A stretch of 20,000 nucleotides of DNA from IMG/VR virus record IMGVR_UViG_3300006137_000106. One strand, 5' to 3'. Source of the DNA: an uncultured virus (IMG/VR IMGVR_UViG_3300006137_000106). Lineage: Duplodnaviria; Heunggongvirae; Uroviricota; Caudoviricetes. The notes beneath the pieces are model-generated. The model did not search any database. It was not told the DNA's origin and worked only from the letters and a program-made list of their open reading frames with translations. The translations under genes and the position numbers were made by a program. Positions 1,814 through 20,000 of the stretch are shown piece after piece. The stretch's first letter is position 1. Every line of letters begins with the position of its first letter.

Positions 1814-2678
1814 GGAATTGATTTATAAAAGGTTTATTAATTCAGTGAATCTTGTAAAGCATCTTGCAATATTTTCTGGGGCACCTGCTGTTTTTAGCCC
1901 AGAACCGCCAGAAGAAAGCCAGGAAGGGTGGGGCGGCAATACACAGTATCCAATGATTGTCTACAATTTTGACCTACAGGCAAATGAAGAAAGACACAGT
2001 GCTGGTACATTGTCTGTATCATTATTATGTCAAAACACAACAGAAATCATACCAGAGGCGATTGAACCACTGGTAAGGGACTGCCTGCGAGATGTAGTCT
2101 TAAAGCCAGCAGAAGGCACACCATACTGTTTTACATGGGCGAGGACAGATGCCTTCACTATAGATAGTGAAAAAGGGAATGTAACAATTGGAAGTGAAGT
2201 GCGGTTTGACATTCTGGAATACCCTTCCCAAGAAACATCTGACCCTGATCCAATTATGGCAGTTAATAAGTACATCAAAGAACTATGTCCGGAATGCCTG
2301 ATTATCGGATATGACAGAATGGAAGAGATAACAGAAGCAACAACAGAAAAACCAATAGTTTATTGTAGGCTAGTATCAATAGAGAAATCTACAGAAACGA
2401 ATACAGTTGCTTGGATGGACAGTAGAATTGCTGTCCATATTTTATGTCCAGATAATGAATTGAGAATAAAAATCACAGGAATTATTGCACAAAAAGTATC
2501 TCTTGATGGAGAAATTATTATGCTGGATTACTCGCCTATGTTTGTAAAACACTTGCAGGTAAACTATAAGGCCGACTACTTGAAAGAAGGTCAGATTTTT
2601 GTAACGGGTCATTATGGGCTGCTAAGATACAAAGCAAAAGGGCATACGTTAACAGCCGCCCATACAAAGTATTTATAA
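1803..2678 (+). CDS. Putative tail terminator/tail-completion protein (start re-assigned to GTG 1803, 291 aa)
   Basis: RBS GAGGGAG just before GTG 1803; position directly before sheath; function inferred from synteny. Confidence 0.55.
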   Translation: MKLEELIYKRFINSVNLVKHLAIFSGAPAVFSPEPPEESQEGWGGNTQYPMIVYNFDLQANEERHSAGTLSVSLLCQNTTEIIPEAIEPLVRDCLRDVVLKPAEGTPYCFTWARTDAFTIDSEKGNVTIGSEVRFDILEYPSQETSDPDPIMAVNKYIKELCPECLIIGYDRMEEITEATTEKPIVYCRLVSIEKSTETNTVAWMDSRIAVHILCPDNELRIKITGIIAQKVSLDGEIIMLDYSPMFVKHLQVNYKADYLKEGQIFVTGHYGLLRYKAKGHTLTAAHTKYL

Positions 2679-2689
2679 GGAGGGACCAC

Positions 2690-2929
2690 ATGGCAAAAGA
2701 AACAAAAAATGTAGAAACAATTGAAACTGCACAGAACAGAAGCCCATCTGCAAAAGTTCCAGAGGAATCTGTCTATAAGGTGGAGGAACTTGCAGCAAAT
2801 GCCAAAACTGTATTTGGCACAAGACCAGAGTGTATAACAGCCGCTTTAAAAGAGGGTGGAAAAAAGGAATACACTGTGTCTGAAGCAAAAGTAGTAGTAC
2901 AGAAATTTTTGAAAAAGGAGGTAAAGTAG
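2690..2929 (+). CDS. Small YqzN/YkzM-like phage protein
   Basis: RBS AAGGAGG; 79 aa with YKVEEL...FG.RPE...AAL...YTVSEAK..V.KFLKKEV; this type of gene precedes the sheath in PBSX/skin-like elements. Confidence 0.65.
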   Translation: MAKETKNVETIETAQNRSPSAKVPEESVYKVEELAANAKTVFGTRPECITAALKEGGKKEYTVSEAKVVVQKFLKKEVK

Positions 2930-2930
2930 A

Positions 2931-4340
2931 GTGGCTGGTACATTTATGTTAGGAGAAACAAAGGTGCGCCCTGGTTCCTACTTCAATATTCAGAGGAAAG
3001 GTTCAAACGCGACAGCAGGTATTTTAAATGGAATAACAGCCGTCATCTTCCGAGCAGACTTTGGACCGCTTAATGAAGCGGTAGAATTATCAGTAGAAGA
3101 TGGTTACGAAGGAATATTTGGAATTGGACTTACCACAGATGCGTTAAGGGAAGCATTTGCAGGTGGAGCAAAAACTATTATTGCCTGTCGTGTTGGTAAC
3201 GGAGGCAGACAAGGAACAATTACATTAAAAGACAAAGATGATATGGAGGCTGTCACTATTACAGCAAAATATCCGGGAGATAAGGATTTTACAGTGACAA
3301 TCCGCGAAAAGCTTTCCGATTCTAGCTTAAAAGAGTGTATTGTTTACACAGGTACAACACAGTTTGAAAAGTTGGAATTTGCAGCCGGTGTGGGAGAGGT
3401 AAAGGCTCTTGTGGAGGCTTTTGCTACATCTAAAAATTTCAAGGCTGAGGCAAAAGAGAGAGAAGATGAAAAAATTGTAGCCAATGTGTTACAGAGTGTT
3501 TTCACAAAAGGAACAAATCCAGAAGTGACAAGCGGGGATTATTCCAATGCATTTGCACAAGTGGAACCATTTGAGTACAATACGATTTGTGTTGACACAG
3601 AGGAAACCTCAATCCACATGCTTCTACAGTCTTTTATTAACCGTATTTTTGATGCTGGCTCTCTGACACAGGCAGTTATAGCAGAAAAACAGTCTGTTGA
3701 CTTAGAGACTAGAATTATGCACGCAGCATCTTTCAACGATGAAAAGATAAACTATGTGCTGAATGCAAAGGTTGATGAACAGGGTGTAATTATTGACGGT
3801 TATCAGACAGCGGCAAGGATTGCTGGTATGATTGGCGCATGTGCCTCCAACTCGTCGCTAACGCATACGGTAATTAACGGCTTTTCTGAGTTAAAGGAGA
3901 GTTTGTCTAATACAGATATGATTGCCGCAGAGAAAAAAGGCTGTATTGTACTTAGCTATAATAAGTCAAAGCAAGTGTGGATTGACAATGCAATCAATAC
4001 CCTTATAACTCCAGCAGACAACCAAGATGATGGCTGGAAGAAAATCCGCAGGGTAAAAACCCGTTTCGAGCTGATTCGCAGGATTAACAACACCGCCGAC
4101 GATTTAGTGGGAAAAGTTGATAATGACACAAACGGCAGGCAGACAGTAATTAGCCAGCTACAGGGTGTTGGTGATGACATGAAAGCTGAGGGTAAATTAG
4201 TAGCTTGCACAGTAACGGAGAGTAGTGCCTATTTATCAGATGGAGACAGCGCGTGGTTTGACATTGATGTAATTGATAAAGACAGCATGGAACATATCTA
4301 TCTGACATTTACTTTCCGTTTTAGTACAAGGGAAGAGTAG
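2931..4340 (+). CDS. xkdK: Contractile tail sheath protein (XkdK-like)
   Basis: 469 aa; N-terminal GETKVRPG.Y, C-terminal AINTL...WKKIRRVKT and D.MEHIYLTF; RBS AAGGAGGT. Confidence 0.92.
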   Translation: MAGTFMLGETKVRPGSYFNIQRKGSNATAGILNGITAVIFRADFGPLNEAVELSVEDGYEGIFGIGLTTDALREAFAGGAKTIIACRVGNGGRQGTITLKDKDDMEAVTITAKYPGDKDFTVTIREKLSDSSLKECIVYTGTTQFEKLEFAAGVGEVKALVEAFATSKNFKAEAKEREDEKIVANVLQSVFTKGTNPEVTSGDYSNAFAQVEPFEYNTICVDTEETSIHMLLQSFINRIFDAGSLTQAVIAEKQSVDLETRIMHAASFNDEKINYVLNAKVDEQGVIIDGYQTAARIAGMIGACASNSSLTHTVINGFSELKESLSNTDMIAAEKKGCIVLSYNKSKQVWIDNAINTLITPADNQDDGWKKIRRVKTRFELIRRINNTADDLVGKVDNDTNGRQTVISQLQGVGDDMKAEGKLVACTVTESSAYLSDGDSAWFDIDVIDKDSMEHIYLTFTFRFSTREE

Positions 4341-4351
4341 GAGGATAGCTT

Positions 4352-4813
4352 ATGAGAAATGAAAGAGCAGCAGGTGATTCCAGACATGCAAGAACCGGTA
4401 AAGATGGAGCATTCTACAATAAAGATGGGGTTATGCTTGCAACTGTGGAGCAGTTTACGTCGAATGTTAATTGGAATAATAGTAAATATAATGTGCTTGG
4501 AGATGCACAGGAACATGAGACGGCGAATACTTTTTCTGTTAGTCTTACCATGTCGCAGATTGTAGTAGAAGATGATGAATTTATTGTTGAGCTTATGACC
4601 GCATTGGAGACACAGGTTATGCCAGTATGGGACTTTCAGGGTTCTCTTTTAGGGAGAAATGGATCGGAAGAGCGTGTAATCTATCGAGATTGTATTCCTT
4701 CAGGGCAGGTGGACATTCAGAATGTTTCTGTAGGTGATGTAATTAAGCGCAACTGGAATTTCTTTGTGAACAAGGCGCCGAAGTTACAGACCTTACTTAG
4801 TATCGACAGTTAG
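4352..4813 (+). CDS. xkdM: Tail tube protein (XkdM-like)
   Basis: 153 aa immediately after sheath; RBS AGGAGG; FQG.L...NGSEERVIYRDCIPSG motif. Confidence 0.88.
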   Translation: MRNERAAGDSRHARTGKDGAFYNKDGVMLATVEQFTSNVNWNNSKYNVLGDAQEHETANTFSVSLTMSQIVVEDDEFIVELMTALETQVMPVWDFQGSLLGRNGSEERVIYRDCIPSGQVDIQNVSVGDVIKRNWNFFVNKAPKLQTLLSIDS

Positions 4814-4836
4814 TAAAAATTTAAGTAACAACGATG

Positions 4837-4866
4837 GAGAGTGGCAGGGTGTCACTCTCTTTTATT
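4837..4866 (+). terminator. Rho-independent terminator after tail tube
   Basis: Stem GAGAGTGGCA/TGTCACTCTC (one G:U), loop GGG, followed by TTTTATT. Confidence 0.75.
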
Positions 4867-4976
4867 ATGCGTAGACCTGTGCAGAGGGAATATGCCATTA
4901 AAGTAGTGCACCGGTCGCGCGATAAGTAGGGGAAACAACTTTCCCTACCTTGATTACAGAGTTGGAGGAAAATCAG

Positions 4977-5540
4977 ATGTCAAAAGAATTTGTAAAAGGT
5001 GTAACGAGAAGAGAAAGTGAGCCTGAAGTAGAAAGTACGCAACACATAGGAGAATATGAGACAGATACAAAAGATACTCAAGCATTGATGCGGGCAAATG
5101 AAGAGGATTTTATACAGGGACTGATTGCTGCGGCAAAGTTCGTGTCTGAGGAAACGCAGCGCATTGAGATTATTCGGGATAAGAGGCTGTTCTTTGCATT
5201 CAATATTCGCCCCCTTAGTTCACAGGAATATGAGAAGTGTAAAAGAAAGCATACCAAGTATGTGCGCAATAAGCAGCTTGGAATGAAACTGCCAGAGGAG
5301 ACAGACCGGATTAAATATCAATCTGCGATTATTTATGAGGCGACAGTGGCAGAAGATAGGGCGAAACTGTGGGATAACCGTAAAATATGGGAGGCGCTAA
5401 ACGCTAAAAAAGACCGTATTATGAACGGTTTGGACGTGATTGAATATACACTTAAAGCTGGGGAAAAAGACAGGATTTTGGAAGCAATCGACAAGCTGAG
5501 TGGGTATGAAGACAATCTGGAGGACGTAATAAAAAACTAA
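4977..5540 (+). CDS. xkdN: Tail assembly chaperone (XkdN-like), start at ATG 4977, 187 aa
   Basis: RBS GGAGG at 4964-4968; lies between tube and tape measure; L.AGE...I...I.KLSGY...IKN C-terminus; ends in slippery A AAA AAC. Confidence 0.85.
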   Translation: MSKEFVKGVTRRESEPEVESTQHIGEYETDTKDTQALMRANEEDFIQGLIAAAKFVSEETQRIEIIRDKRLFFAFNIRPLSSQEYEKCKRKHTKYVRNKQLGMKLPEETDRIKYQSAIIYEATVAEDRAKLWDNRKIWEALNAKKDRIMNGLDVIEYTLKAGEKDRILEAIDKLSGYEDNLEDVIKN

Positions 5541-5713
5541 TTTGTGCAGGGGGAAAAACCTGTCTGTTACACCACATTTTTCAGACAACAGGCATTACCC
5601 CTGATGAATTTTATAAAAAGCCAGAAGGCATACAAAAATTTATACTTGCCTCTATGAGAGTAACCGTAGAATCACGAATGAAAGTAGGTGAGGATAATAG
5701 CACAGACACTTAA
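5531..5713 (+). CDS. -1 frameshift extension of the tail chaperone (gpGT-equivalent; adds 58 aa LICAGGKTCLLHHIFQTTGITPDEFYKKPEG...)
   Basis: A AAA AAC at 5531-5537 immediately before stop; -1 frame is open to TAA 5711-5713; absent from ORF track. Confidence 0.8.
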   Translation, partial: KKLICAGGKTCLLHHIFQTTGITPDEFYKKPEGIQKFILASMRVTVESRMKVGEDNSTDT

Positions 5714-8700
5714 AATTGAAATACCAATCGAGACTGTAGATAAGACAGAACCTGAGCTGTCAAATCTGATTCGAAAAATAGGAAAACTAGAGGAGGCAGC
5801 AGAGAAAACAGGAAATTCTTCCAAGAAGGCAGGAGAACAGGTTTCCCAGTTTGACAGACAGGCCCAAAAAACAGAGAAAAGTCTGGCAAGCTGGGCGAAA
5901 GAAAAATATCAAATCTTGCTGGAGGCGAAAGAAAAAATTACTCCAATTATCTCCAAAATCGGAAATGGTCTAAGAAGTTTCGCTGGAAAAACGTGGAGTG
6001 TTACTATGCGAGCCGCTGACTTTATTACTTCACCTGTAAGGGGGATTATAAACCTGTTGAAAAATCCTATTTTTCAAGCTGGGGCAGTTCTTGGAGTCAG
6101 TATAGGATTAAAAGATACAATAGATACCTATAAGGGCTTTGAGGCTGCCATGTCACAGGTGGAAGCTATAAGCGGCGCTACTGGTTCGGAAATGGTAAAA
6201 TTGACCAATAAGGCAAAGGAAATGGGTGCCACAACTAAATTCACGGCTTCCGAATCAGCAGAAGCGTTTAATTACATGGCTATGGCAGGCTGGAAGACAG
6301 AGGATATGCTTGGCGGGATTGAAGGAATCCTCAATCTTGCCGCAGCATCAGGAGAGAGTCTTGGTACAACATCTGACATTGTGACTGATGCATTAACCGC
6401 CTTTGGAATGAAGGCAAGTGAAGCGGGGCATTTTGCTGACGTTATGGCGGTAGCAGCATCGAACTCCAATACAAACGTTTCTTTGATGGGAGAGACCTTT
6501 AAATATGCAGGGGCTATGGCTGGAACACTGAAATATTCTATTGAAGATGTTGCACTGGCAACTGGGTTGATGGCGAATACAGGAGTTAAAGGTAGTATGG
6601 CAGGTACAGCGTTAAATTCTATATTTACTAGACTGTCTACAAATACAAATGGTGCTACTGATGCGCTAAAGAAATTGGGTGTAGAATTTTATAATTCAGA
6701 TAAAACTGCCAGACCACTTAAAGAGGTTATGGATGACTTACGAGCAGCAACAGAAGATTTTAAGCCTGCACAGAAATCAATGATTGCTAATACAATAGCA
6801 GGGACATATGCACAAAAAGGACTGATTGCAATTTTAAATGCGTCTACAGAGGATTATGAAAAGCTGTCTAAGGCTGTAAATAATGCAGATGGAGCTGCTG
6901 CAAATATGGCTGAAATTATGATGGATAATCTGCAGGGTTCGATTAAAATACTGCAGAGCGCCGTGGATGGGGTAAAGCTCTCTTTTGGGGAGAGACTATC
7001 GCCATATGTGAGAAATCTTGCTGAATGGCTTACTGCTCAGATGCCTGTAGTAGAACAGGGATTAAATGAATTTATGGACTGGGTTGACGGGAAAATTGAC
7101 CAGATGCAGAGGAAATTCAATGCGATTGCAGATACAAAGGAGTGGCAAGATGCAGATTTCTTCGGAAAGGTCAAGATAGCTTGGGACGAATTTATTGCTG
7201 AACCATTCTTAGAGTGGTGGAACAGCACTGGCAAAGTAAAATTTGCAGAGTTTGCACAGAGTATTGGTAATGGAATTGGAGCAGGATTAAAGTCTGGCAT
7301 TATGACGCTGTTAGGAATAGATATTAGTGAAACTTTAGATGAAGGGGTAAGTATTGGTGCTGCATTTGCAAAAGGATTTTCACAAGGATTTGATTTTGAT
7401 TCAATTTCAGGAGGCTTATGGCAGGGATTTAAAAGTATGGTTTCCAGTGCAGGGAAGCTGCTGCCAGGTGGCGAGTCAGCAGGTTTATCCTCTATTTTAT
7501 CAGCGGTTATGCTTAGTAAGATTGCCGCCCCGTTTATTGGTATGGGAAGAGGAGCGACAAGTCTTGGAAAAGGGCTGTTTGGAATAAATCCAGAAACGGG
7601 AACCTCACTTATGGGTTCTTTTCTAGGATCAGCAGCGTCAGGTACAGGGTTGCTCGGAAAGTCTGCTATGCTGGCAATCAATTTAGGAGCCGGGAACTTG
7701 GCGGGCGGTGCATCCATGAGTACCGGAGCATTGGCGGCGACCGGATTGGGAGCTGGTATTGGTACGGTTGCGGCAGGCGCTACACTAATAAGTAGTGCGC
7801 TGGACGCATACAAGGCAATTAAATCAGACAATAAGGAAGAATCGAAAGCCTATGGAGAATCAGCAGCATGGAAAGCCGGAGGAGTTGCGGCAGGTGCTGC
7901 AACCGGTGCAGCGATAGGCACTATTATTCCTATTCCTGGAATTAGCACAGCGGTAGGTGCTTTAATTGGTGCTGGTGTTGGCGGTATTACCGGTTGGATT
8001 AAGGGAAACAAGATAAAGGAAGAATACCAGGAAAATGTAGAGGAAATGCAAAAGGAAGCGGAAAAGGCACAGAAAGTCTTTCAAGCTACGGGATTGGCAA
8101 TTGAAGATGTTAAATTTAAGAATGAAGCATTGACGCAGGCTATGAATGATGCAGGGGTTTCTGCTTCCCAGTTCGCGGTAATGTTTCAGGAAGAATGTGC
8201 GAATGTGGCTAAGAGAGCTTTTGGGGATATTTCCTTGTCTTTAAAAGAAGTAAAGAAAGTTGCAAGCGAAATCACCTTTGCCGGAATGGCAAAGGAATTA
8301 GATGAGTTTGCAAATGTAGTGGCTAATACAGAAGAGGGGTTTAATAACCTAAAATCTTCTGTAACAAATCTGAAAAAGGAAAACTGGAAGGTAGGTCTTG
8401 GAATGGAGCTGTCTGAAACAGATAAGGACAGTTACAGGGGTGCAGTTGAAAACTTCCTAAGCACAAGCCAGGATTTCATTGATAATAACCATTACCAAGC
8501 AACAGTTGCTTTGAAACTGCTGACAGGAGAAGAGGCAGATACTACCAATCTGGATAGTTACTATGGCTGCTTGAAAAGCCAGCTTGAGGATTTAGGTACA
8601 AAACTAGCGGATTCCATGAATGCTGCTTTGGAGGATAGTATAATTACTCCAGACGAAGCCATAGATATTGAAAACAGGCAAAATCAAATTTCAGATATTA

Positions 8701-16067: not shown

Positions 16068-17726
16068 ATGAAAAAATATACATCTGACAATCCTGTATTT
16101 TCGGAAGAAATAGATATTGTGGAGCGGGCAGACCTTGTAAATAACGAGAATAAAACAAAGGCAGAGAAGCAGCTTCTCCAAAACGATTTAGTATTAAAAC
16201 AACGAATGGACAAATACCTTGGTGATGGTAATACACCGGAATTTGTAGAAGGCATAGAGGCAGACAATGTTATCGATGCGGTGAATGAGGTTTTTACGCT
16301 TGGCAGTGAGAAGAAAAGACAGCTTGTGGAAAATCTTACTGCCTTGGGAATTACAGCTTCCGCAGGTGATACATGGGAAACATTACTAAACAAAGTGTTA
16401 GGCTTAATCAATACATCTGATGATACTGTTACTGCGGAAGCACTTCTAAGTGGATACACAGCGCACAATGCTGCTGGCACAAAGATTACTGGCACACTTG
16501 CGGATAAGACAAATATAGCAGACTACAGTACAGATGCATCTTTAGACGCAGCAAATAAGCGGTTAAAGTTAAAAGTACCTGCATCGGGAAAGTATGGCAC
16601 AAGTAATTACTTGTATGCAGCATTTAGCGCAATTGCGAACTTAATTGGACTTACAGCGGCAAAGCTTGTTAAGGGCAATACGATTTTAGGAATAACAGGC
16701 AATAACAATAACATGGATACCAGTGGAGCAGATGCAGCAGCAGGAAATATTTTATCTGGTAAAAAAGCAGCAGTAAAGGGCACTTTAATTACAGGAACAA
16801 TGCCAAACAAAGGAGCGTGGACAGGAGCTACAACAGGAAGTGGAAATGTAACAATCCCAGCAGGCTATCATAATGGAAGTGGACATGTGTCTGGTGCAGG
16901 GGCATATAATGCCGGAGTAAGTGCCGCAGATGGGCGGGTAAATGCGGATAGTGCCAACTACAAGGGTGGGTACAATGCAGGAGTAAGTGCCACCAAAAAG
17001 GGAACAGCAGGAGCAGGAGACGTACTGTCTGGAAAAACATTTACAAATGGCAGCAGTGTAGGTGCAAGTGGAACAATGCCAAACAAAGGAGCGTGGACAG
17101 GAGCTACAACAGGAAATGGAAATGTAGCAATCCCAGCAGGCTATCATAATGGAAGTGGCTATGTGTCTGGCGCAGGGGCATACAATAAAGGCGTTACAGA
17201 TGCGGACAACAGGGTAAATACAAATAGTGCCAACTACAAAGGGGGGTATAACGCAGGAGTAAGTGCCGCAGACGGGCGGGTAAATGCAGACAGTGCCAAC
17301 TATAAAGGTGGCTACAATGCAGGAGTAAGTGCCACCAAAAAGGGAACAGCAGGAGCAGGAGATGTGCTATCTGGAAAAACATTTACAAATGGCAGCAGCG
17401 TAGGTGCCAGTGGAACGATGCCAAACAAAGGAAATACAACACAAGATGCAGGAGCAACTACACAAGATGATACCTATACATATTTGACAGTTCCAATAGC
17501 AGGGTATTATGATACAGCCAGTAAGCTTAGGACGAAAAATAGTAATTTAGAAAAAGATCTTACAATAGTCGTGAATGTAAGGCAAAGCATACTTGGACAT
17601 ACTCCACCGACAGAATATCGAGATCTAAACATTGAAGTATTAAGAAGTGGGGTATCTGTATATAAAAGTGGTTGGCACGGGGCGGGAAGTGGTACCGAAC
17701 GCAAAACATATAGTATAAAGGTTTAA
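16068..17726 (+). CDS. Tail fibre / receptor-binding protein; constant 490 aa plus switchable C-terminus (cassette A, 62 aa)
   Basis: RBS AAAGGGG; Gly/Ala/Thr-rich repeats (GTMPNKG, IPAGYHNGSG, DVLSGKTF); position after baseplate; recombination site in frame at 17537. Confidence 0.88.
   Translation: MKKYTSDNPVFSEEIDIVERADLVNNENKTKAEKQLLQNDLVLKQRMDKYLGDGNTPEFVEGIEADNVIDAVNEVFTLGSEKKRQLVENLTALGITASAGDTWETLLNKVLGLINTSDDTVTAEALLSGYTAHNAAGTKITGTLADKTNIADYSTDASLDAANKRLKLKVPASGKYGTSNYLYAAFSAIANLIGLTAAKLVKGNTILGITGNNNNMDTSGADAAAGNILSGKKAAVKGTLITGTMPNKGAWTGATTGSGNVTIPAGYHNGSGHVSGAGAYNAGVSAADGRVNADSANYKGGYNAGVSATKKGTAGAGDVLSGKTFTNGSSVGASGTMPNKGAWTGATTGNGNVAIPAGYHNGSGYVSGAGAYNKGVTDADNRVNTNSANYKGGYNAGVSAADGRVNADSANYKGGYNAGVSATKKGTAGAGDVLSGKTFTNGSSVGASGTMPNKGNTTQDAGATTQDDTYTYLTVPIAGYYDTASKLRTKNSNLEKDLTIVVNVRQSILGHTPPTEYRDLNIEVLRSGVSVYKSGWHGAGSGTERKTYSIKV
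16794..17432 (+). repeat. Intragenic tandem repeats of tail fibre: units start at 16794, 17070 and 17412 (partial); 276-bp and 342-bp periods with nested 66-bp module
   Basis: Near-identical DNA units beginning GGAACAATGCCAAACAAAGGA; second unit has one extra 22-aa module. Confidence 0.92.
17537..17553 (+). repeat. Shufflon crossover site 1 (AAATAGTAATTTAGAAA), inside fibre gene
   Basis: Exact 17-mer present four times; encodes NSNLE in fibre frame. Confidence 0.9.
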
Positions 17727-17739
17727 TCAGTACAACGAG

Positions 17740-18036
17740 TCACAAAATTCCTATTACTATGCCACAGTGATTGTAGTATGCACGCAGCGATATAGTAGTA
17801 CCCGCTTCACAATTCAATGCGTATCCCATTGTTACACTCATGTCAGGCTCACGACCATATTTTCGGTTGTTGCAAATGTAGACAATACCAGGTATATTCA
17901 CACTGGATGACGGGCCTCCGGTATCCTGACCTGCGGAAAGCGCGACGATGCAAGAATATTTTTTGCTAGTAGTTATTGTTGTATTTCCCCCGACATGCAA
18001 GATTTCAATTTTGTTGACAATTTCTAAATTACTATT
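17740..18036 (-). other. Silent alternative tail-fibre C-terminal cassette B (98 aa, NSNLEIVNKIEILHVGG...IVIGIL), copy 1
   Basis: Begins at inverted site 2 in the same NSNLE frame, lacks own RBS/start, stop converges on cassette A stop. Confidence 0.88.
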
Positions 18037-18042
18037 TATTGT
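18014..18042 (+). promoter_or_regulatory. Putative sigma-A promoter straddling crossover site 2
   Basis: TTGACA (18014-18019), 17 bp, TATTGT (18037-18042). Confidence 0.5.
18021..18037 (-). repeat. Shufflon crossover site 2 (inverted)
   Basis: TTTCTAAATTACTATTT is the reverse complement of site 1. Confidence 0.9.
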
Positions 18043-18073
18043 CCTAGATGATTATAAAAAGGAGAAAAAATGA

Positions 18074-18232
18074 GTGAAATTTATTATAGAACAAATATCT
18101 ATAGTAAAAGAAATACGTTTTGAAAAGGAAGATGCGGATAAATATTCTGTTCCAGCCGGATATTATGTTCCGAAACGGAGAGCATCTCAAAGCGATAGAG
18201 AAAAGTTATCAAATTTGAATAAGATCAAATAG
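18074..18232 (+). CDS. Small hypothetical protein, 52 aa (MKFIIEQISIVKEIRFEKEDADKYSVPAGYYVPKRRASQSDREKLSNLNKIK)
   Basis: AAGGAG at 18059-18064, GTG 9 nt downstream, open to TAG 18230-18232; below ORF-track cutoff. Confidence 0.5.
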   Translation: MKFIIEQISIVKEIRFEKEDADKYSVPAGYYVPKRRASQSDREKLSNLNKIK

Positions 18233-18240
18233 ACAGCAAA

Positions 18241-18300
18241 CATAAGAAATAATCCTTCTATGGTACAATTAAGTAAAAAATAGGAGGGTTATTTCTTATG
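18241..18300 (+). promoter_or_regulatory. RBS/start-codon-sequestering hairpin of recombinase gene with extended -10 (TGGTACAAT) in the loop
   Basis: 18241-18260 pairs with 18281-18300: 18 Watson-Crick + 2 G:U pairs; 3' arm contains GGAGG and ATG. Confidence 0.75.
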
Positions 18301-19293
18301 AAAGATGAATTTATAACAAATATTCTGGCTAAAATGTTAGGTACGCTTACACAAGAACAGTGTACAGAACTAAAAACAGCATTGTACATGGAATTACAGG
18401 AGTACGAGTTAGAAAAACGGTGTACAGAACTTATGGACGTGGACCAAAGTTATATACATTACCTACAATTGTTTCTTGCACGCAAGAAAACAGAAGGCAA
18501 ATCGGATAGGACAATAAAACAATACAAACTGCATCTTGCCCATATGTTACAAAATCTTAATATGCCAATAGAAAAGATAACAGAGAATGACTTGTTTGTG
18601 TATCTGGCAAAATATAAAAAGGATAAGAATGTGTCTAATGTCTACTTAGATAATATCAGACTTGTATTTAGCAGCTTCTTTACATGGCTTAATGCAAAAG
18701 GCTATATATGTAAGAATCCAACAGAGGGACTTGAACCTATCAAGGTGGAGAAAAAAATTAAGCAACCGTTTAGTGATGAAGAACTTGAAAAATTAAGACG
18801 AATCTGTGAACAAGAAAGAGATTTAGCATTAATAGAATTTTTGTATAGTACAGGCGTTAGAGTATCAGAATTAGTTGCACTAAATAAAAAGGACATAGAC
18901 TTTTATGGTAAAAATGTAGTGGTATATGGAAAAGGAAGCAAAGAGCGGGAAACATATTTAAATGCTGCATCATGCCTGCATTTAAAAGCATACCTTGATA
19001 GTCGAAATGATGATAATGAGGCTTTATTTGTAAGTGCTAGAGCACCATATACCCGTTTAACAGTTGCAGGTGTAGAGAAAGTATTACAAAGAATTGGAAA
19101 AGAGGCAGGAGTACAGAAAGTGCATCCACACCGATTTCGACGAACAATGGCAACTAATGTGCTAAAAAAAGGAATGCCTTTAGAGGAAGTAAAGGAACTT
19201 CTAGGGCATACCAAGTTAGATACAACTATGATTTATTGTACAGTTAGTAAAGAGAATGTGAAACATTCACACCAAAAATTAATGAGTGCATAG
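18298..19293 (+). CDS. Tyrosine recombinase (XerC/D-like), probable shufflon invertase
   Basis: Catalytic set: TGVRVSEL (R), GKGSKER (K), HPHRFRR (HxxR), LLGH, TTMIY (Y); RBS AGGAGG; flanked by crossover sites. Confidence 0.95.
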   Translation: MKDEFITNILAKMLGTLTQEQCTELKTALYMELQEYELEKRCTELMDVDQSYIHYLQLFLARKKTEGKSDRTIKQYKLHLAHMLQNLNMPIEKITENDLFVYLAKYKKDKNVSNVYLDNIRLVFSSFFTWLNAKGYICKNPTEGLEPIKVEKKIKQPFSDEELEKLRRICEQERDLALIEFLYSTGVRVSELVALNKKDIDFYGKNVVVYGKGSKERETYLNAASCLHLKAYLDSRNDDNEALFVSARAPYTRLTVAGVEKVLQRIGKEAGVQKVHPHRFRRTMATNVLKKGMPLEEVKELLGHTKLDTTMIYCTVSKENVKHSHQKLMSA

Positions 19294-19325
19294 ATATGTA
19301 AAAAACCCTATACAAGTAGTTTATC

Positions 19326-19349
19326 AGACCCTTGTCAATGGGTCTTTTT
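19326..19349 (+). terminator. Rho-independent terminator after recombinase
   Basis: AGACCC-TTGTCAAT-GGGTCT followed by TTTT. Confidence 0.75.
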
Positions 19350-19439
19350 GTGGTTAGATTTAAGTAAGATACAATAATTGACAACAAATGTAATAGTATT
19401 TGGGGCTACAGAAAATGATTTCTATATAAGAAGGCTAAT

Positions 19440-19456
19440 AAATAGTAATTTAGAAA
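19440..19456 (+). repeat. Shufflon crossover site 3
   Basis: AAATAGTAATTTAGAAA exact. Confidence 0.9.
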
Positions 19457-19629
19457 AAGATCTTACAATAGTCGTGAATGTAAGGCAAAGCATACTTGGA
19501 CATACTCCACCGACAGAATATCGAGATCTAAACATTGAAGTATTAAGAAGTGGGGTATCTGTATATAAAAGTGGTTGGCACGGGGCGGGAAGTGGTACCG
19601 AACGCAAAACATATAGTATAAAGGTTTAA
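19441..19629 (+). other. Silent tail-fibre C-terminal cassette A, copy 2 (62 aa)
   Basis: Same translation as last 62 aa of fibre; downstream of terminator; no RBS. Confidence 0.88.
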
Positions 19630-19642
19630 TCAGTACAACGAG

Positions 19643-19939
19643 TCACAAAATTCCTATTACTATGCCACAGTGATTGTAGTATGCACGCAGCGATATAGTA
19701 GTACCCGCTTCACAATTCAATGCGTATCCCATTGTTACACTCATGTCAGGCTCACGACCATATTTTCGGTTGTTGCAAATGTAGACAATACCAGGTATAT
19801 TCACACTGGATGACGGGCCTCCGGTATCCTGACCTGCGGAAAGCGCGACGATGCAAGAATATTTTTTGCTAGTAGTTATTGTTGTATTTCCCCCGACATG
19901 CAAGATTTCAATTTTGTTGACAATTTCTAAATTACTATT
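19643..19939 (-). other. Silent tail-fibre C-terminal cassette B, copy 2 (98 aa)
   Basis: Identical to 17740-18036; starts at site 4. Confidence 0.88.
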
Positions 19940-19940
19940 T
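19924..19940 (-). repeat. Shufflon crossover site 4 (inverted)
   Basis: TTTCTAAATTACTATTT exact. Confidence 0.9.
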
Positions 19941-20000
19941 ATTTCCCTAAATGACCGCATATGAGCACCAAAAAAGAAATTTGGCGTTGATATGCGTTTA

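Follow-up and report, generated by a model that had tools for sequence, protein, structure and literature searches.

A DNA-inversion switch that exchanges the tail-fibre tip in a prophage of a mouse-gut Lachnospiraceae bacterium

Among known phage switches, the Rin shufflon is one of the closest to the locus studied here. Rin, in which a tyrosine invertase encoded by the phage switches a receptor-binding protein, was published in 2018 for prophages of Bifidobacterium breve and B. longum (Mavrich et al. 2018, PMC6109161) and has also been reported in Eggerthella lenta prophages (PMC8778435), so that the kind of switch described here is not new. An earlier note on this DNA had listed Gin, Cin and Rci as the established precedents, a list that was incomplete in that it omitted Rin (PMC6109161). 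As the system is outlined in the sections of these papers that bear on it, Rin and our locus are both phage-encoded, place start-less C-terminal cassettes behind a short site in a constant N-terminal receptor-binding or fibre gene, have an armless Xer-like tyrosine recombinase adjoining, and display inversions at the sites in sequence data; the likeness is one of layout. In the same outline, Rin differs in its Actinobacteria hosts, in its 11-bp rix core (TTCCCTAACCC, another sequence than the present core), and in having rin at the end of Rv cassettes that all lie on one side; in our locus, two arms of two cassettes each flank an invertible recombinase module. Of the traits of a Rin-type system, an in-frame 3' site, several start-less cassettes, an armless tyrosine recombinase and inversions in the data were found at our locus; the 30 phage hits to its recombinase at E<=1e-20 included no Bifidobacterium record.

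In the shufflon of R64 and IncI plasmids, the Rci recombinase acts at sfx sites, which are conserved in the core and one arm only, and multiple inversions swap the C-terminal ends (tips) of the PilV adhesin. Our locus is alike in that multiple inversions, probably by a tyrosine recombinase, exchange adhesin C-termini and in the one-sided conservation of its sites, seen here in 46 of them; it differs in that the target is a phage fibre rather than a conjugative pilus adhesin, and in that the recombinase lies inside the invertible region, not outside it. This likeness is to the Rci system as generally described, the present enzyme being filed as XerA-type by NCBIfam, and a plasmid tblastn search with the recombinase gave no Rci row among the matches listed (40 of at least 5000). 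The fibre switches of Mu Gin, P1 Cin and p15B Min also provide alternative tail-fibre C-termini by DNA inversion, but by serine recombinases with another chemistry, as summarised in PMC6109161, whereas the present locus carries a tyrosine recombinase. Among the 20 ORFs that were scanned, there was no second recombinase match, the tyrosine family being the only one. The invertible segments of Gin, Cin and Min also carry fibre-assembly genes, and an ORF family scan found none of these in the present invertible segments.

The DNA analysed (hereafter the window) is a stretch of 20,000 nucleotides from an uncultured virus, a prophage of a mouse-gut Lachnospiraceae bacterium, and our analyses confirm that it carries a DNA-inversion switch exchanging the tail-fibre tip. 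The hosts are Lachnospiraceae, which agrees with the earlier assignment to a Firmicutes prophage. Upstream are genes for sheath, tube, an XkdN-like chaperone, tape measure, baseplate J, a Mu gp48-like protein and a tail-collar N-terminal domain; the Rin phages, for their part, are presumably siphovirus-like. Downstream of site 4, as seen in the relative L008, are small membrane ORFs and an ORF that we read by eye from its translation as an amidase-type lysin. A search of GenBank phage DNA with the region gave a sole match, of 375 bp at 70% in the tail-collar gene. The features of the locus are collected in Table 1.

Table 1. Features of the tail-fibre shufflon, in window coordinates
Feature	Positions	Strand	Remarks
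Fibre constant part, 490 aa	16068..17537	+	within ORF 16068-17726; ends ...YYDTASKLRTK
Site 1	17527..17553	+	17-mer at 17537-17553; left arm, with AGG, conserved in part; in-frame position in fibre gene
Invertible unit 1, 504 bp	17537..18040	.	identical to unit 2; ends are sites 1 and 2
Tip A copy 1, 62 aa + stop	17538..17726	+	currently expressed tip
Tip B copy 1, 98 aa + stop	17740..18036	-	silent, start-less; convergent with tip A, 13-bp gap
Site 2	18021..18046	-	
Small ORF, 52 aa from GTG	18074..18232	+	related to 62-aa ORF of L001 and L008
Conserved stem-loop	18241..18300	+	upstream sequence pairs with recombinase Shine-Dalgarno (18282-18288) and ATG (18298)
Tyrosine recombinase, 331 aa	18298..19293	+	Xer-like, two-domain; presumed invertase
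Terminator-like hairpin + T-run	19326..19355	+	after recombinase gene
Site 3	19432..19456	+	
Invertible unit 2, 504 bp	19440..19943	.	ends are sites 3 and 4
Tip A copy 2	19441-19629	+	in unit 2
Tip B copy 2	19643-19939	-	in unit 2
Site 4	19924..19950	-	

The 17-mer AAATAGTAATTTAGAAA occurs in exactly four copies, at 17537(+), 18021(-), 19440(+) and 19924(-), and our exact search thus agrees with the positions and strands (+,-,+,-) that had been reported. With up to three mismatches allowed, there are 5 matches against 0.45 expected, a number reached in 0 of 200 shuffles. The core, ~16 bp long, consists of short inverted arms (TAAAT ... ATTTA) about an asymmetric centre; the flanking arm on its constant side is partly conserved and the cassette side is variable. 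Across 46 distinct sites, the conserved stretch reaches from ~12 bp to the left of the core as far as TTTAG, beyond which, on the cassette side, conservation ceases. Within the left arm, site 1 reads ...GACGAAA and sites 2-4 read ...AATA. Sites 1 and 3 form a direct repeat, as do sites 2 and 4, with 1.9 kb between; such pairs could in principle delete the intervening 1.9 kb, a point that we counted against a shufflon reading.

Site 1 lies in frame, as had been claimed, at codon 490/491 of the 552-aa fibre gene (ORF 16068-17726), and the fibre DNA is 81% identical to that of L001 and L008 as far as the site, then diverges. The frames opened at all four sites begin NSNLE; they had all been described as start-less, and this part of the description does not extend to sites 3 and 4, where the ORF finder gives upstream candidate starts (TTG 19378, ATG 19960). 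In the frame of the first tip B copy, a stop codon lies 5 codons upstream of the site. Tip A would give a fibre of 490+62 = 552 aa and tip B one of 490+98 = 588 aa, and the two tips have no BLASTP alignment with each other. The two units, each with tip A and tip B converging, flank the recombinase module and form a perfect direct repeat of 504 bp whose ends are the cores. Because the units are identical, the four sites offer a repertoire of two tips, not four; of the multi-site cassette picture given by the earlier note, the four sites stand, but the cassette pairs are identical and hold only two different tips. The relative L042 has its own cassette-pair duplication, a 627-bp perfect repeat also ending at the cores. 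Since the repeat stops exactly at the cores, we infer that the identical pairs arose via double site-specific exchange between two genome copies.

Neither tip belongs to a family in Pfam or PHROGs, and a Pfam search with 10 cassettes, nine of them from relatives, gave 0 families above cutoff. We looked for a full-length protein ending in tip B among 55 longer-protein candidates and found none at E<=0.001. A HMMER scan of 1.84 billion representatives with tip B gave 6 hits, one of which is the window's own 119-aa ORF at site 4. The remaining five hits are weak repeat matches to long proteins from various families (PPC, Ig, FG-GAP and others); four of these proteins aligned in several stretches at 25-35% identity, and we take all five to be compositional. 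The best ESM Atlas scores for tip B (0.85-0.87) are to viral hypothetical proteins, which we treat as leads only, and an AlphaFold2 model of tip B alone, with eight strands, had a pLDDT of 46.4, too poor for a fold search. With the tips outside any family and the tip B model poor, it is their position that suggests that they are receptor-binding ends altering host range.

The recombinase in the middle of the locus is intact, as had been noted: it matches PF00589 (6e-38) and PF13495 (5.7e-10) in Pfam, with no family match in the first ~55 aa, and its catalytic residues are all in place (R188, K215, H278, R281, H304, Y313). Its best solved relative is the XerC-like 4a8e (1.9e-34), with the R, K, H-x-x-R, H and Y aligned. 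It scores 247.7 bits against the XerA-type NCBIfam model NF040815 (cutoff 220), and falls below cutoff for each of the XerC, XerD and XerS models. The label "Rci-like" holds only as an analogy; the enzyme itself scores as XerA-type and its nearest non-phage relatives are invertases of hsdS shufflons. Recombinases 85-95% identical to it were found in Lachnospiraceae MAGs and IMG/VR contigs. The cultured Clostridia phages TPELB_ph1 (39%) and phiCp-D (31%) have a related "integrase" between the last tail gene and the holin, and no inverted repeats fitting a shufflon pattern were found in either phage. The recombinase of the locus is probably the catalyst of the inversion.

The start of the recombinase gene is covered by a stem-loop that folds at -28.5 kcal/mol (z -8.8), equalled by 0 of 200 shuffles, and that has compensatory changes at 5 of 12 pairs among 10 sequences; its loop carries an invariant TGnTACAAT at 18261-18269. 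We propose that the stem-loop blocks translation of the recombinase from read-through transcripts, and that a promoter in its loop may yield a transcript with a free ribosome-binding site. The small ORF that precedes the stem-loop does not share its frame with the ATG found upstream of it in the window. This ORF was considered as a general accessory factor and rejected, as we found it nowhere beyond the window, L001 (which is the same contig as L030) and L008.

Evidence of inversion comes from public sequencing data, in which the window stretch is present in 19 runs of 10 studies. We analysed Logan contigs of four runs from four studies (X16, X5, X11 and X4). In each of them the unit is a single contig of 501-504 bp at ~2x flank depth: 590.3 against flanks of 295.9, 215.1 and 247.2 in X16, 93.5 against 49.7 and 55.1 in X5, 1680.7 against 829.7, 792.8 and 824.9 in X11, and 21.9 against 16.7 and 11.9 in X4. 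Alternative junctions were found at all four sites. The site-2 flank is joined to tip A in 4/4 runs, as read from loose contig ends, and the site-4 flank to tip A also in 4/4 (in X16 via a loose end at 19437), while the site-3 flank is joined to tip B in 3/4. The junction that the earlier note had proposed to look for, fibre to tip B, was found in one of the four runs, the deepest (X11); these data are contigs and not reads, so the counts give no junction frequencies. The missing fibre-tip B loose end in X16, X5 and X4 is not evidence of absence. Since alternative junctions occur at all four sites in public runs, inversion happens in nature. As most of these runs are metagenomes, the two states may represent strains living side by side instead of a clone that switches. 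Relative to the fibre side, the recombinase module has a depth of 71-111%, which gives no clear indication that it is lost.

The related Lachnospiraceae phage loci retain the in-frame site (N-S-N-L/I) and the two-armed layout with other tips. The 52 cassettes collected from 22 sources are of 30 types, and the site is kept in frame ahead of other cassettes, a comparison that the earlier note had proposed for related prophages. Some types occupy both active and silent positions: type 0 is the fibre tip of L033, L034 and L038 and a silent cassette in L001, L008, L024 and L043, and type 1 is the fibre tip of L008, L032 and L040 and a silent cassette in L037. All four sites and both arms are present in the window, L003, L004, L008 and L042. 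Four different cassettes in the two-armed layout are found in L008, in L003, in L002 with L005, and in L043, so the layout is ancestral. The recombinase is oriented opposite to the fibre genes in L003, and most of its gene has been lost in L024. Together, the junctions in public runs and this conservation support the central claim of the earlier note, a multi-site inversion system, beside a tyrosine recombinase, that swaps the C-terminal tip of the fibre.

The best explanation, to which we give a probability of roughly 0.85, is that a Lachnospiraceae prophage with a contractile tail carries a shufflon on its tail fibre. The recombinase would pair sites of inverted orientation and invert the DNA between them. 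Recombination of site 1 with site 2 or site 4 would place tip B behind the constant part, that of site 2 with site 3 would flip the recombinase module, and that of site 3 with site 4 would flip the second unit. Each batch of virions would then be built with one of two tips, most likely binding different receptors.

Other explanations have to be weighed against this one. On one hand, the second unit could be an assembly artefact or a passive duplicate, leaving only a simple two-site flip at the fibre; a perfect 504-bp repeat is unusual for short-read assembly, and the contigs of several relatives end just past site 3 (L001, L002), which indicates that assemblers struggle here. We nevertheless find this highly improbable, because the doubled depth of the unit recurs in 4/4 runs, contigs run from the recombinase module into site 3 and from the far flank into site 4, with alternative junctions at both of these sites, and relatives carry cassettes on both sides of the recombinase. 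On the other hand, the recombinase and one unit could be a 1903-bp mobile circle integrated into a fibre gene that already had the same unit, with excision and integration as the main reaction. A perfect direct repeat around the recombinase is the expected remnant of integration through a shared unit, site 1 by site 3 recombination would excise exactly such a circle, and L042 has the same repeat-flanked pattern. Yet the two-armed layout with four different cassettes is ancestral, the junctions observed are inversion junctions, and the module is present at 71-111% of fibre-side depth, which together make a mobile circle quite unlikely.

It is unlikely, too, that inversions were rare events of the past whose products are now fixed in different strains, the switch having ceased to work at a useful rate. 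The contigs come from mostly metagenomic runs, the fibre-tip B junction is rare (1/4 runs) and site 1 is unlike sites 2-4 just left of the core, all in line with such a history; but both states occur at sites 2 and 4 in 4/4 runs from 4 studies, even at depth 12-17, and the recombinase is intact and 85-95% conserved in relatives. That the recombinase is a prophage integrase or a Xer-type dimer resolvase, with the repeats unrelated to it, deserves almost no credence, even though PHROGs and GenBank annotators label such genes "integrase" and this one has the score of a Xer-type recombinase. It sits between the fibre gene and the lysis genes, inside the four sites, a place kept by all 12 fibre-type recombinases of our tree, and its sister clade consists of invertases inside hsdS shufflons with a nearly identical core. 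The traits of a prophage integrase (a position at the prophage end beside attL/attR, an arm-binding N-terminal domain) were not found, the domain set being Xer-like.

The shufflon reading also connects this phage locus with bacterial defence. The nearest non-phage enzymes, at 43-49% identity, are the hsdS-shufflon invertases, which form a sister clade with support of 97/91; in 7 of 10 such relatives the gene has hsdS ORFs as neighbours, and in one further case hsdR. The hsdS core ATAAATGATAATTTAG (L013, L014, L015, L017, L029) and the fibre core ATAAATAGTAATTTAG differ only in two central bases. One of these loci, L029 (MT835621), was considered as a four-site fibre shufflon and rejected, as its translation shows an hsdS shufflon. 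Such hsdS "epigenetic invertons" of Type I restriction-modification have been described, in some loci with the invertase gene inside the invertible region, in the sections of Huang et al. 2020 (PMC7672463) that concern them. These invertons, including PsrA/CreX of S. pneumoniae, are like our locus in the relatedness of the invertase and the near-identical core, but what they exchange, in bacteria and plasmids, is the target-recognition halves of HsdS, whereas the present locus swaps phage fibre tips. Methylase_S had no Pfam match in the window ORFs scanned, the neighbours of the recombinase being fibre cassettes. We tentatively propose, as a possibility that we would sooner bet against than for, that the fibre shufflon and the hsdS invertons are one portable toolkit (a recombinase and a ~16-bp core) that moved between defence and host-range genes, with arms that trade cassette pairs and a hairpin that shields recombinase synthesis from the late operon. 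Both proteins would then keep the motif N-D/S-N-L-E as a trace of the move. In the phage, double site-specific exchange between genome copies would let the arms swap entire cassette pairs, which would explain the independent core-ended perfect duplications in the window and L042, and a hairpin hiding the ribosome-binding site, with the recombinase gene's own promoter in the loop, would shield the recombinase from the late operon.

The range of bacteria to which a phage can attach is set by its tail-fibre tips, and switching the tip in part of the progeny is a form of bet-hedging that shapes the dynamics of phages and hosts in the gut. For Lachnospiraceae, a dominant family of the gut of which few phages have been studied, the locus is a well-supported example, with evidence of flipping in public data from several studies. 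The short defined site and small recombinase could also serve as a cassette-exchange tool in Clostridia. As both enzyme and site are tied to the invertases of restriction specificity, the sequence comparison suggests that one recombination module may serve both sides of the conflict between phage and bacterium.

The fibre gene of this phage ends in a shufflon whose four sites serve only two different tips. The 17-mer AAATAGTAATTTAGAAA occurs in the window as four exact copies, at the positions and on the strands claimed in the earlier note; at up to three mismatches it has five matches against 0.45 expected, a number reached by 0 of 200 shuffles. Also as described there, site 1 lies in frame inside the fibre ORF, NSNLE opens a reading frame at every site, and the fibre would be 588 aa rather than 552 aa long with tip B (98 aa) in place of tip A (62 aa). 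BLASTP gives no alignment between the tips, which had been called unrelated. The note was right about the four sites and missed the identity of the two cassette pairs: the two units form a perfect 504-bp direct repeat with sites 1–2 and 3–4 as its ends, and therefore there are only two tips in two copies each, tip A framed behind sites 1 and 3, tip B behind sites 2 and 4.

Features of the fibre switch in the window and in related loci
Locus	Feature	Coordinates	Remarks
Window	Fibre ORF	16068-17726	552 aa
Window	Long direct repeats, constant part of fibre	16794-17432	193-198-nt copies at 86-92% identity, with spacings of 276 and 342 nt; GTMPNKGAWTGATTG...SANYKGGYNAGV units recur in the encoded protein
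Window	Site 1	17537 (+)	
Window	Site 2	18021 (-)	
Window	Site 3	19440 (+)	
Window	Site 4	19924 (-)	
Window	First unit	17537-18040	
Window	Second unit	19440-19943	
Window	Small ORF	18074-18232	Between the units; match to relatives over 18071-18232
Window	Stem-loop	18241-18300	
Window	Tyrosine recombinase, 331 aa	18298-19293	Between the units; PF00589 6e-38, PF13495 5.7e-10
Window	Terminator-like hairpin	19326-19345	Between the units
Window	Outer flank of site 4	19941-19990	
L001	Similar outer flank	5727-5766	
L008	Transposase-like ORF (IS transposase gene), 410 aa	3738-4970 (-)	Inside first cassette arm
L024	Decayed system	5509-7156	
L042	627-bp perfect repeat	17-643, 2387-3013	Either side of recombinase
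L029 (MT835621.1)	Four-site hsdS shufflon	4210-7113	
L027 (PP197244.1)	Xer-like gene	3896-4891	Annotated "integrase"
L028 (MW478291.1)	Xer-like gene	4004-4981	Annotated "integrase"

Over 46 distinct sites, conservation opens with a GG some 11 bp to the left of the core, continues through A-AAATAG-Y-AAT-W-TA and ends after TTTAG; the constant side is therefore conserved and the cassette side free. The core is an asymmetric centre between short inverted arms (TAAAT / ATTTA). Just left of it, site 1 is unlike nearly all other sites (GAAAAATAG vs ATAAATAG), which fits a lower recombination rate at the expressed gene, though it is not proof of one. In several loci the outer flanks of sites 2 and 4 are alike: the cassette strand reads ...AHMRSFR.I and the opposite strand ATGAGCAC..., a likeness that fits an old duplication of one arm plus ~50 bp of its flank.

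The window represents the tail module of a phage with a contractile tail, with sheath, tube, XkdN-like chaperone, tape measure, LysM protein, baseplate J, Mu gp48-like and tail-collar N-terminal genes ahead of the fibre. In the close relative L008 (Lachnospiraceae MAG, contig of 98 kb), small membrane ORFs follow site 4, and we read the next ORF, by eye from its translation rather than by a family scan, as a probable amidase-type lysin; by this gene order, the switch is positioned between tail and lysis genes. The small ORF of the window matches a 62-aa ORF of L008 and of the IMG/VR contig L001 and is absent from more distant relatives; its upstream ATG is out of frame, leaving GTG 18074 as the sole start.

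In public data the stretch turns up in 19 runs across 10 studies; these runs are mostly metagenomes of the mouse gut. Junctions and depth were checked in the Logan contigs of X11, X16, X5 and X4, each run from a different study. In all four, the 501–504-bp unit is one single contig at about twice the depth of its flanks, contig depth being a rough measure only (1680.7 against 829.7, 792.8 and 824.9 in X11; 590.3 against 295.9, 215.1 and 247.2 in X16; 93.5 against 49.7 and 55.1 in X5; 21.9 against 16.7 and 11.9 in X4). The duplication is therefore real and no artefact of assembly. Of four junctions that are not in the window, two join the site-2 flank to tip A (GTAAGATCTT before 18021; 4/4 runs) and the site-3 flank to tip B (TTGTCAACAA behind 19456; 3/4 runs). 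The site-4 flank is joined to tip A in all four runs, directly in X5, X11 and X4 and via CATTTAGGGA before 19437 in X16. A junction of fibre and tip B (TTGTCAACAAAAT behind 17553), which the earlier note had proposed looking for, was found in contigs of one of the four runs, X11, the deepest.

These alternative junctions, which come from short contigs with loose ends and were matched to the window by eye, are the products expected of inversion between oppositely oriented sites. Contig data yield no frequencies of the arrangements, and co-existing strains rather than switching could also lie behind the junctions, given that most runs are communities. The fibre–tip B junction was seen once only. 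The observation itself is confirmed, and its reading in the earlier note, as a multi-site switch of the fibre tip, is supported; an effect on host range would follow from it.

For such switching, we propose that the recombinase would pair sites in inverted orientation and invert the intervening DNA, so that site 1 with site 2 or 4 would change the fibre tip, site 2 with site 3 would flip the recombinase module, and site 3 with site 4 the second arm. A locus whose four cassettes all differ, such as L008, could bring any tip to the fibre in two steps or fewer; the repertoire of the window is A and B only. The tips have no protein family match and their sole model is poor; from their distal position in the fibre gene and their turnover we infer that they bind receptors. 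Ahead of the recombinase gene, upstream sequence is paired with its Shine-Dalgarno sequence and ATG in a stem-loop (-28.5 kcal/mol, z = -8.8; 0/200 shuffles fold as well) that ten relatives retain, 5 of its 12 pairs showing compensatory changes. The loop motif TGnTACAAT is invariant in all ten, n excepted, and we read it as a putative extended -10 promoter. A transcript from this promoter would begin within the loop, so that its ribosome-binding site would stay accessible, and transcripts entering from outside would have it hidden; the hairpin could thus shield the gene from read-through transcription. Such control would resemble the fold-back inhibition of IS10.

Recombinases 85–95% identical to that of the window occur on IMG/VR contigs L001–L004 (L005 is a fragment) and in four Lachnospiraceae genome bins (L008–L011), and a scan for the fibre–site junction added six viral and eight metagenome loci. 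All these relatives keep the in-frame site as N-S-N-L/I behind ...SKLRTK. L001 and L008 match the window at 81% DNA identity as far as the site and once more in the recombinase module, with unrelated cassettes in between. The earlier note had suggested searching relatives for the site with other cassettes, and these abound: in 22 sources, the 52 cassettes that follow a site sort into 30 types when grouped at 80% identity (L030 and L031, which are identical contigs to L001 and L002, and L004, with a variant core, were left out, and the two cassettes of L009 were too short). Two types change position between loci: type 0 (120 aa) is at the fibre in L033, L034 and L038 and at silent sites in L001, L008, L024 and L043, and type 1 (124 aa) is at the fibre in L008, L032 and L040 and at a silent site in L037. 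L003 has its recombinase reversed relative to the fibre and baseplate genes, and L002 and L042 combine identical recombinases with wholly different cassettes.

The full layout (fibre, site, tip, inverted tip, site, recombinase, site, tip, inverted tip, site) is found in the window, L003, L008 and L042, and also in L004 with the core variant TCAGYTAAATAGCAA. In L042 the cassette pair is duplicated as a perfect repeat ending at the cores, with tips that differ from those of the window; this is the same duplicated state, arrived at independently. Because both duplications end exactly at cores, we infer two site-specific exchanges between two genome copies, and such a double exchange would carry a whole cassette pair from one arm to the other. 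Two relatives show decay. The transposase-like ORF of L008 cuts its fibre-joined tip to 54 aa, the same tip having 123 aa in L032 and L040, and in L024 site 2 is gone and only the last 60 codons of the recombinase gene survive, along with three sites and three cassettes.

The recombinase is intact, as had been claimed, with its PF00589 match and catalytic residues R188, K215, H278, R281, H304 and Y313 all in place. It passes NCBIfam NF040815 (247.7 bits, cutoff 220), stays below the XerC, XerD and XerS family cutoffs, and has the XerC-like protein 4a8e as best solved relative (1.9e-34). Among ten more distant relatives (L012–L021, 39–49% identity), the neighbours are HsdS-domain ORFs in seven and HsdR, a DUF1016 nuclease and a phage replication module in one each; the best plasmid match among those listed, at 46%, has hsdS genes on either side of it on Lactococcus pJM2A. 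In a tree of 29 rows, whose midpoint root gives no direction of transfer, 12 fibre-type recombinases form one clade (support 100/100), sister to 11 restriction-linked ones (97/91); fragments (L005, L024), duplicates (L030, L031) and loci without a 200-aa match were left out. Around the recombinase, hsdS loci L013, L014, L015, L017 and L029 carry at least three copies of ATAAATGATAATTTAG in both orientations, translating as N-D-N-L-E at the start of HsdS halves, and only two central bases separate this core from the fibre core. The core of L044 is AAATCATCATTTAG, and no site of the ATAAATGATAATTTAG type was seen in L012, L016, L018 or L019. The recombinase belongs to the hsdS-invertase lineage. 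Among phage records, L029, filed as "Bacteriophage sp." from human faeces, has a recombinase 44% identical to that of the window and a core two bases off the fibre core. In two cultured Clostridia phages (L027, L028) the Xer-like gene has the last tail gene on one side and the holin on the other, with no inverted sites matching the pattern; the record of one of them, TPELB_ph1, includes another gene annotated integrase at a different place.

The principle of a fibre-tip shufflon is already known. Mavrich et al. (2018) describe the Rin shufflon of Bifidobacterium prophages as a constant RBP gene with Rv cassettes behind 11-bp rix sites, its inversions seen in prophage and virion data (PMC6109161); a Rin shufflon is also reported from Eggerthella lenta prophages (PMC8778435). 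Milman et al. (2023) include tail-fibre genes among programmed-inversion targets (PMC9881135), in a text without the words Lachnospiraceae and Clostridia, and Huang et al. (2020) treat hsdS invertons and their invertase clades (PMC7672463), in a text without the words prophage and tail. Among the papers searched, mostly from outside the subscription journals, none dealt with a fibre shufflon run by a tyrosine recombinase in Lachnospiraceae or other Firmicutes, or with a link between a fibre shufflon and hsdS invertases. In its mode of action the system resembles the Rin and R64 shufflons, and it is best classed with them; what deserves a short follow-up is its layout, the signs that it flips in nature, the repeated occurrence of core-bounded duplications and the near-identity of its core with a restriction-shufflon core.
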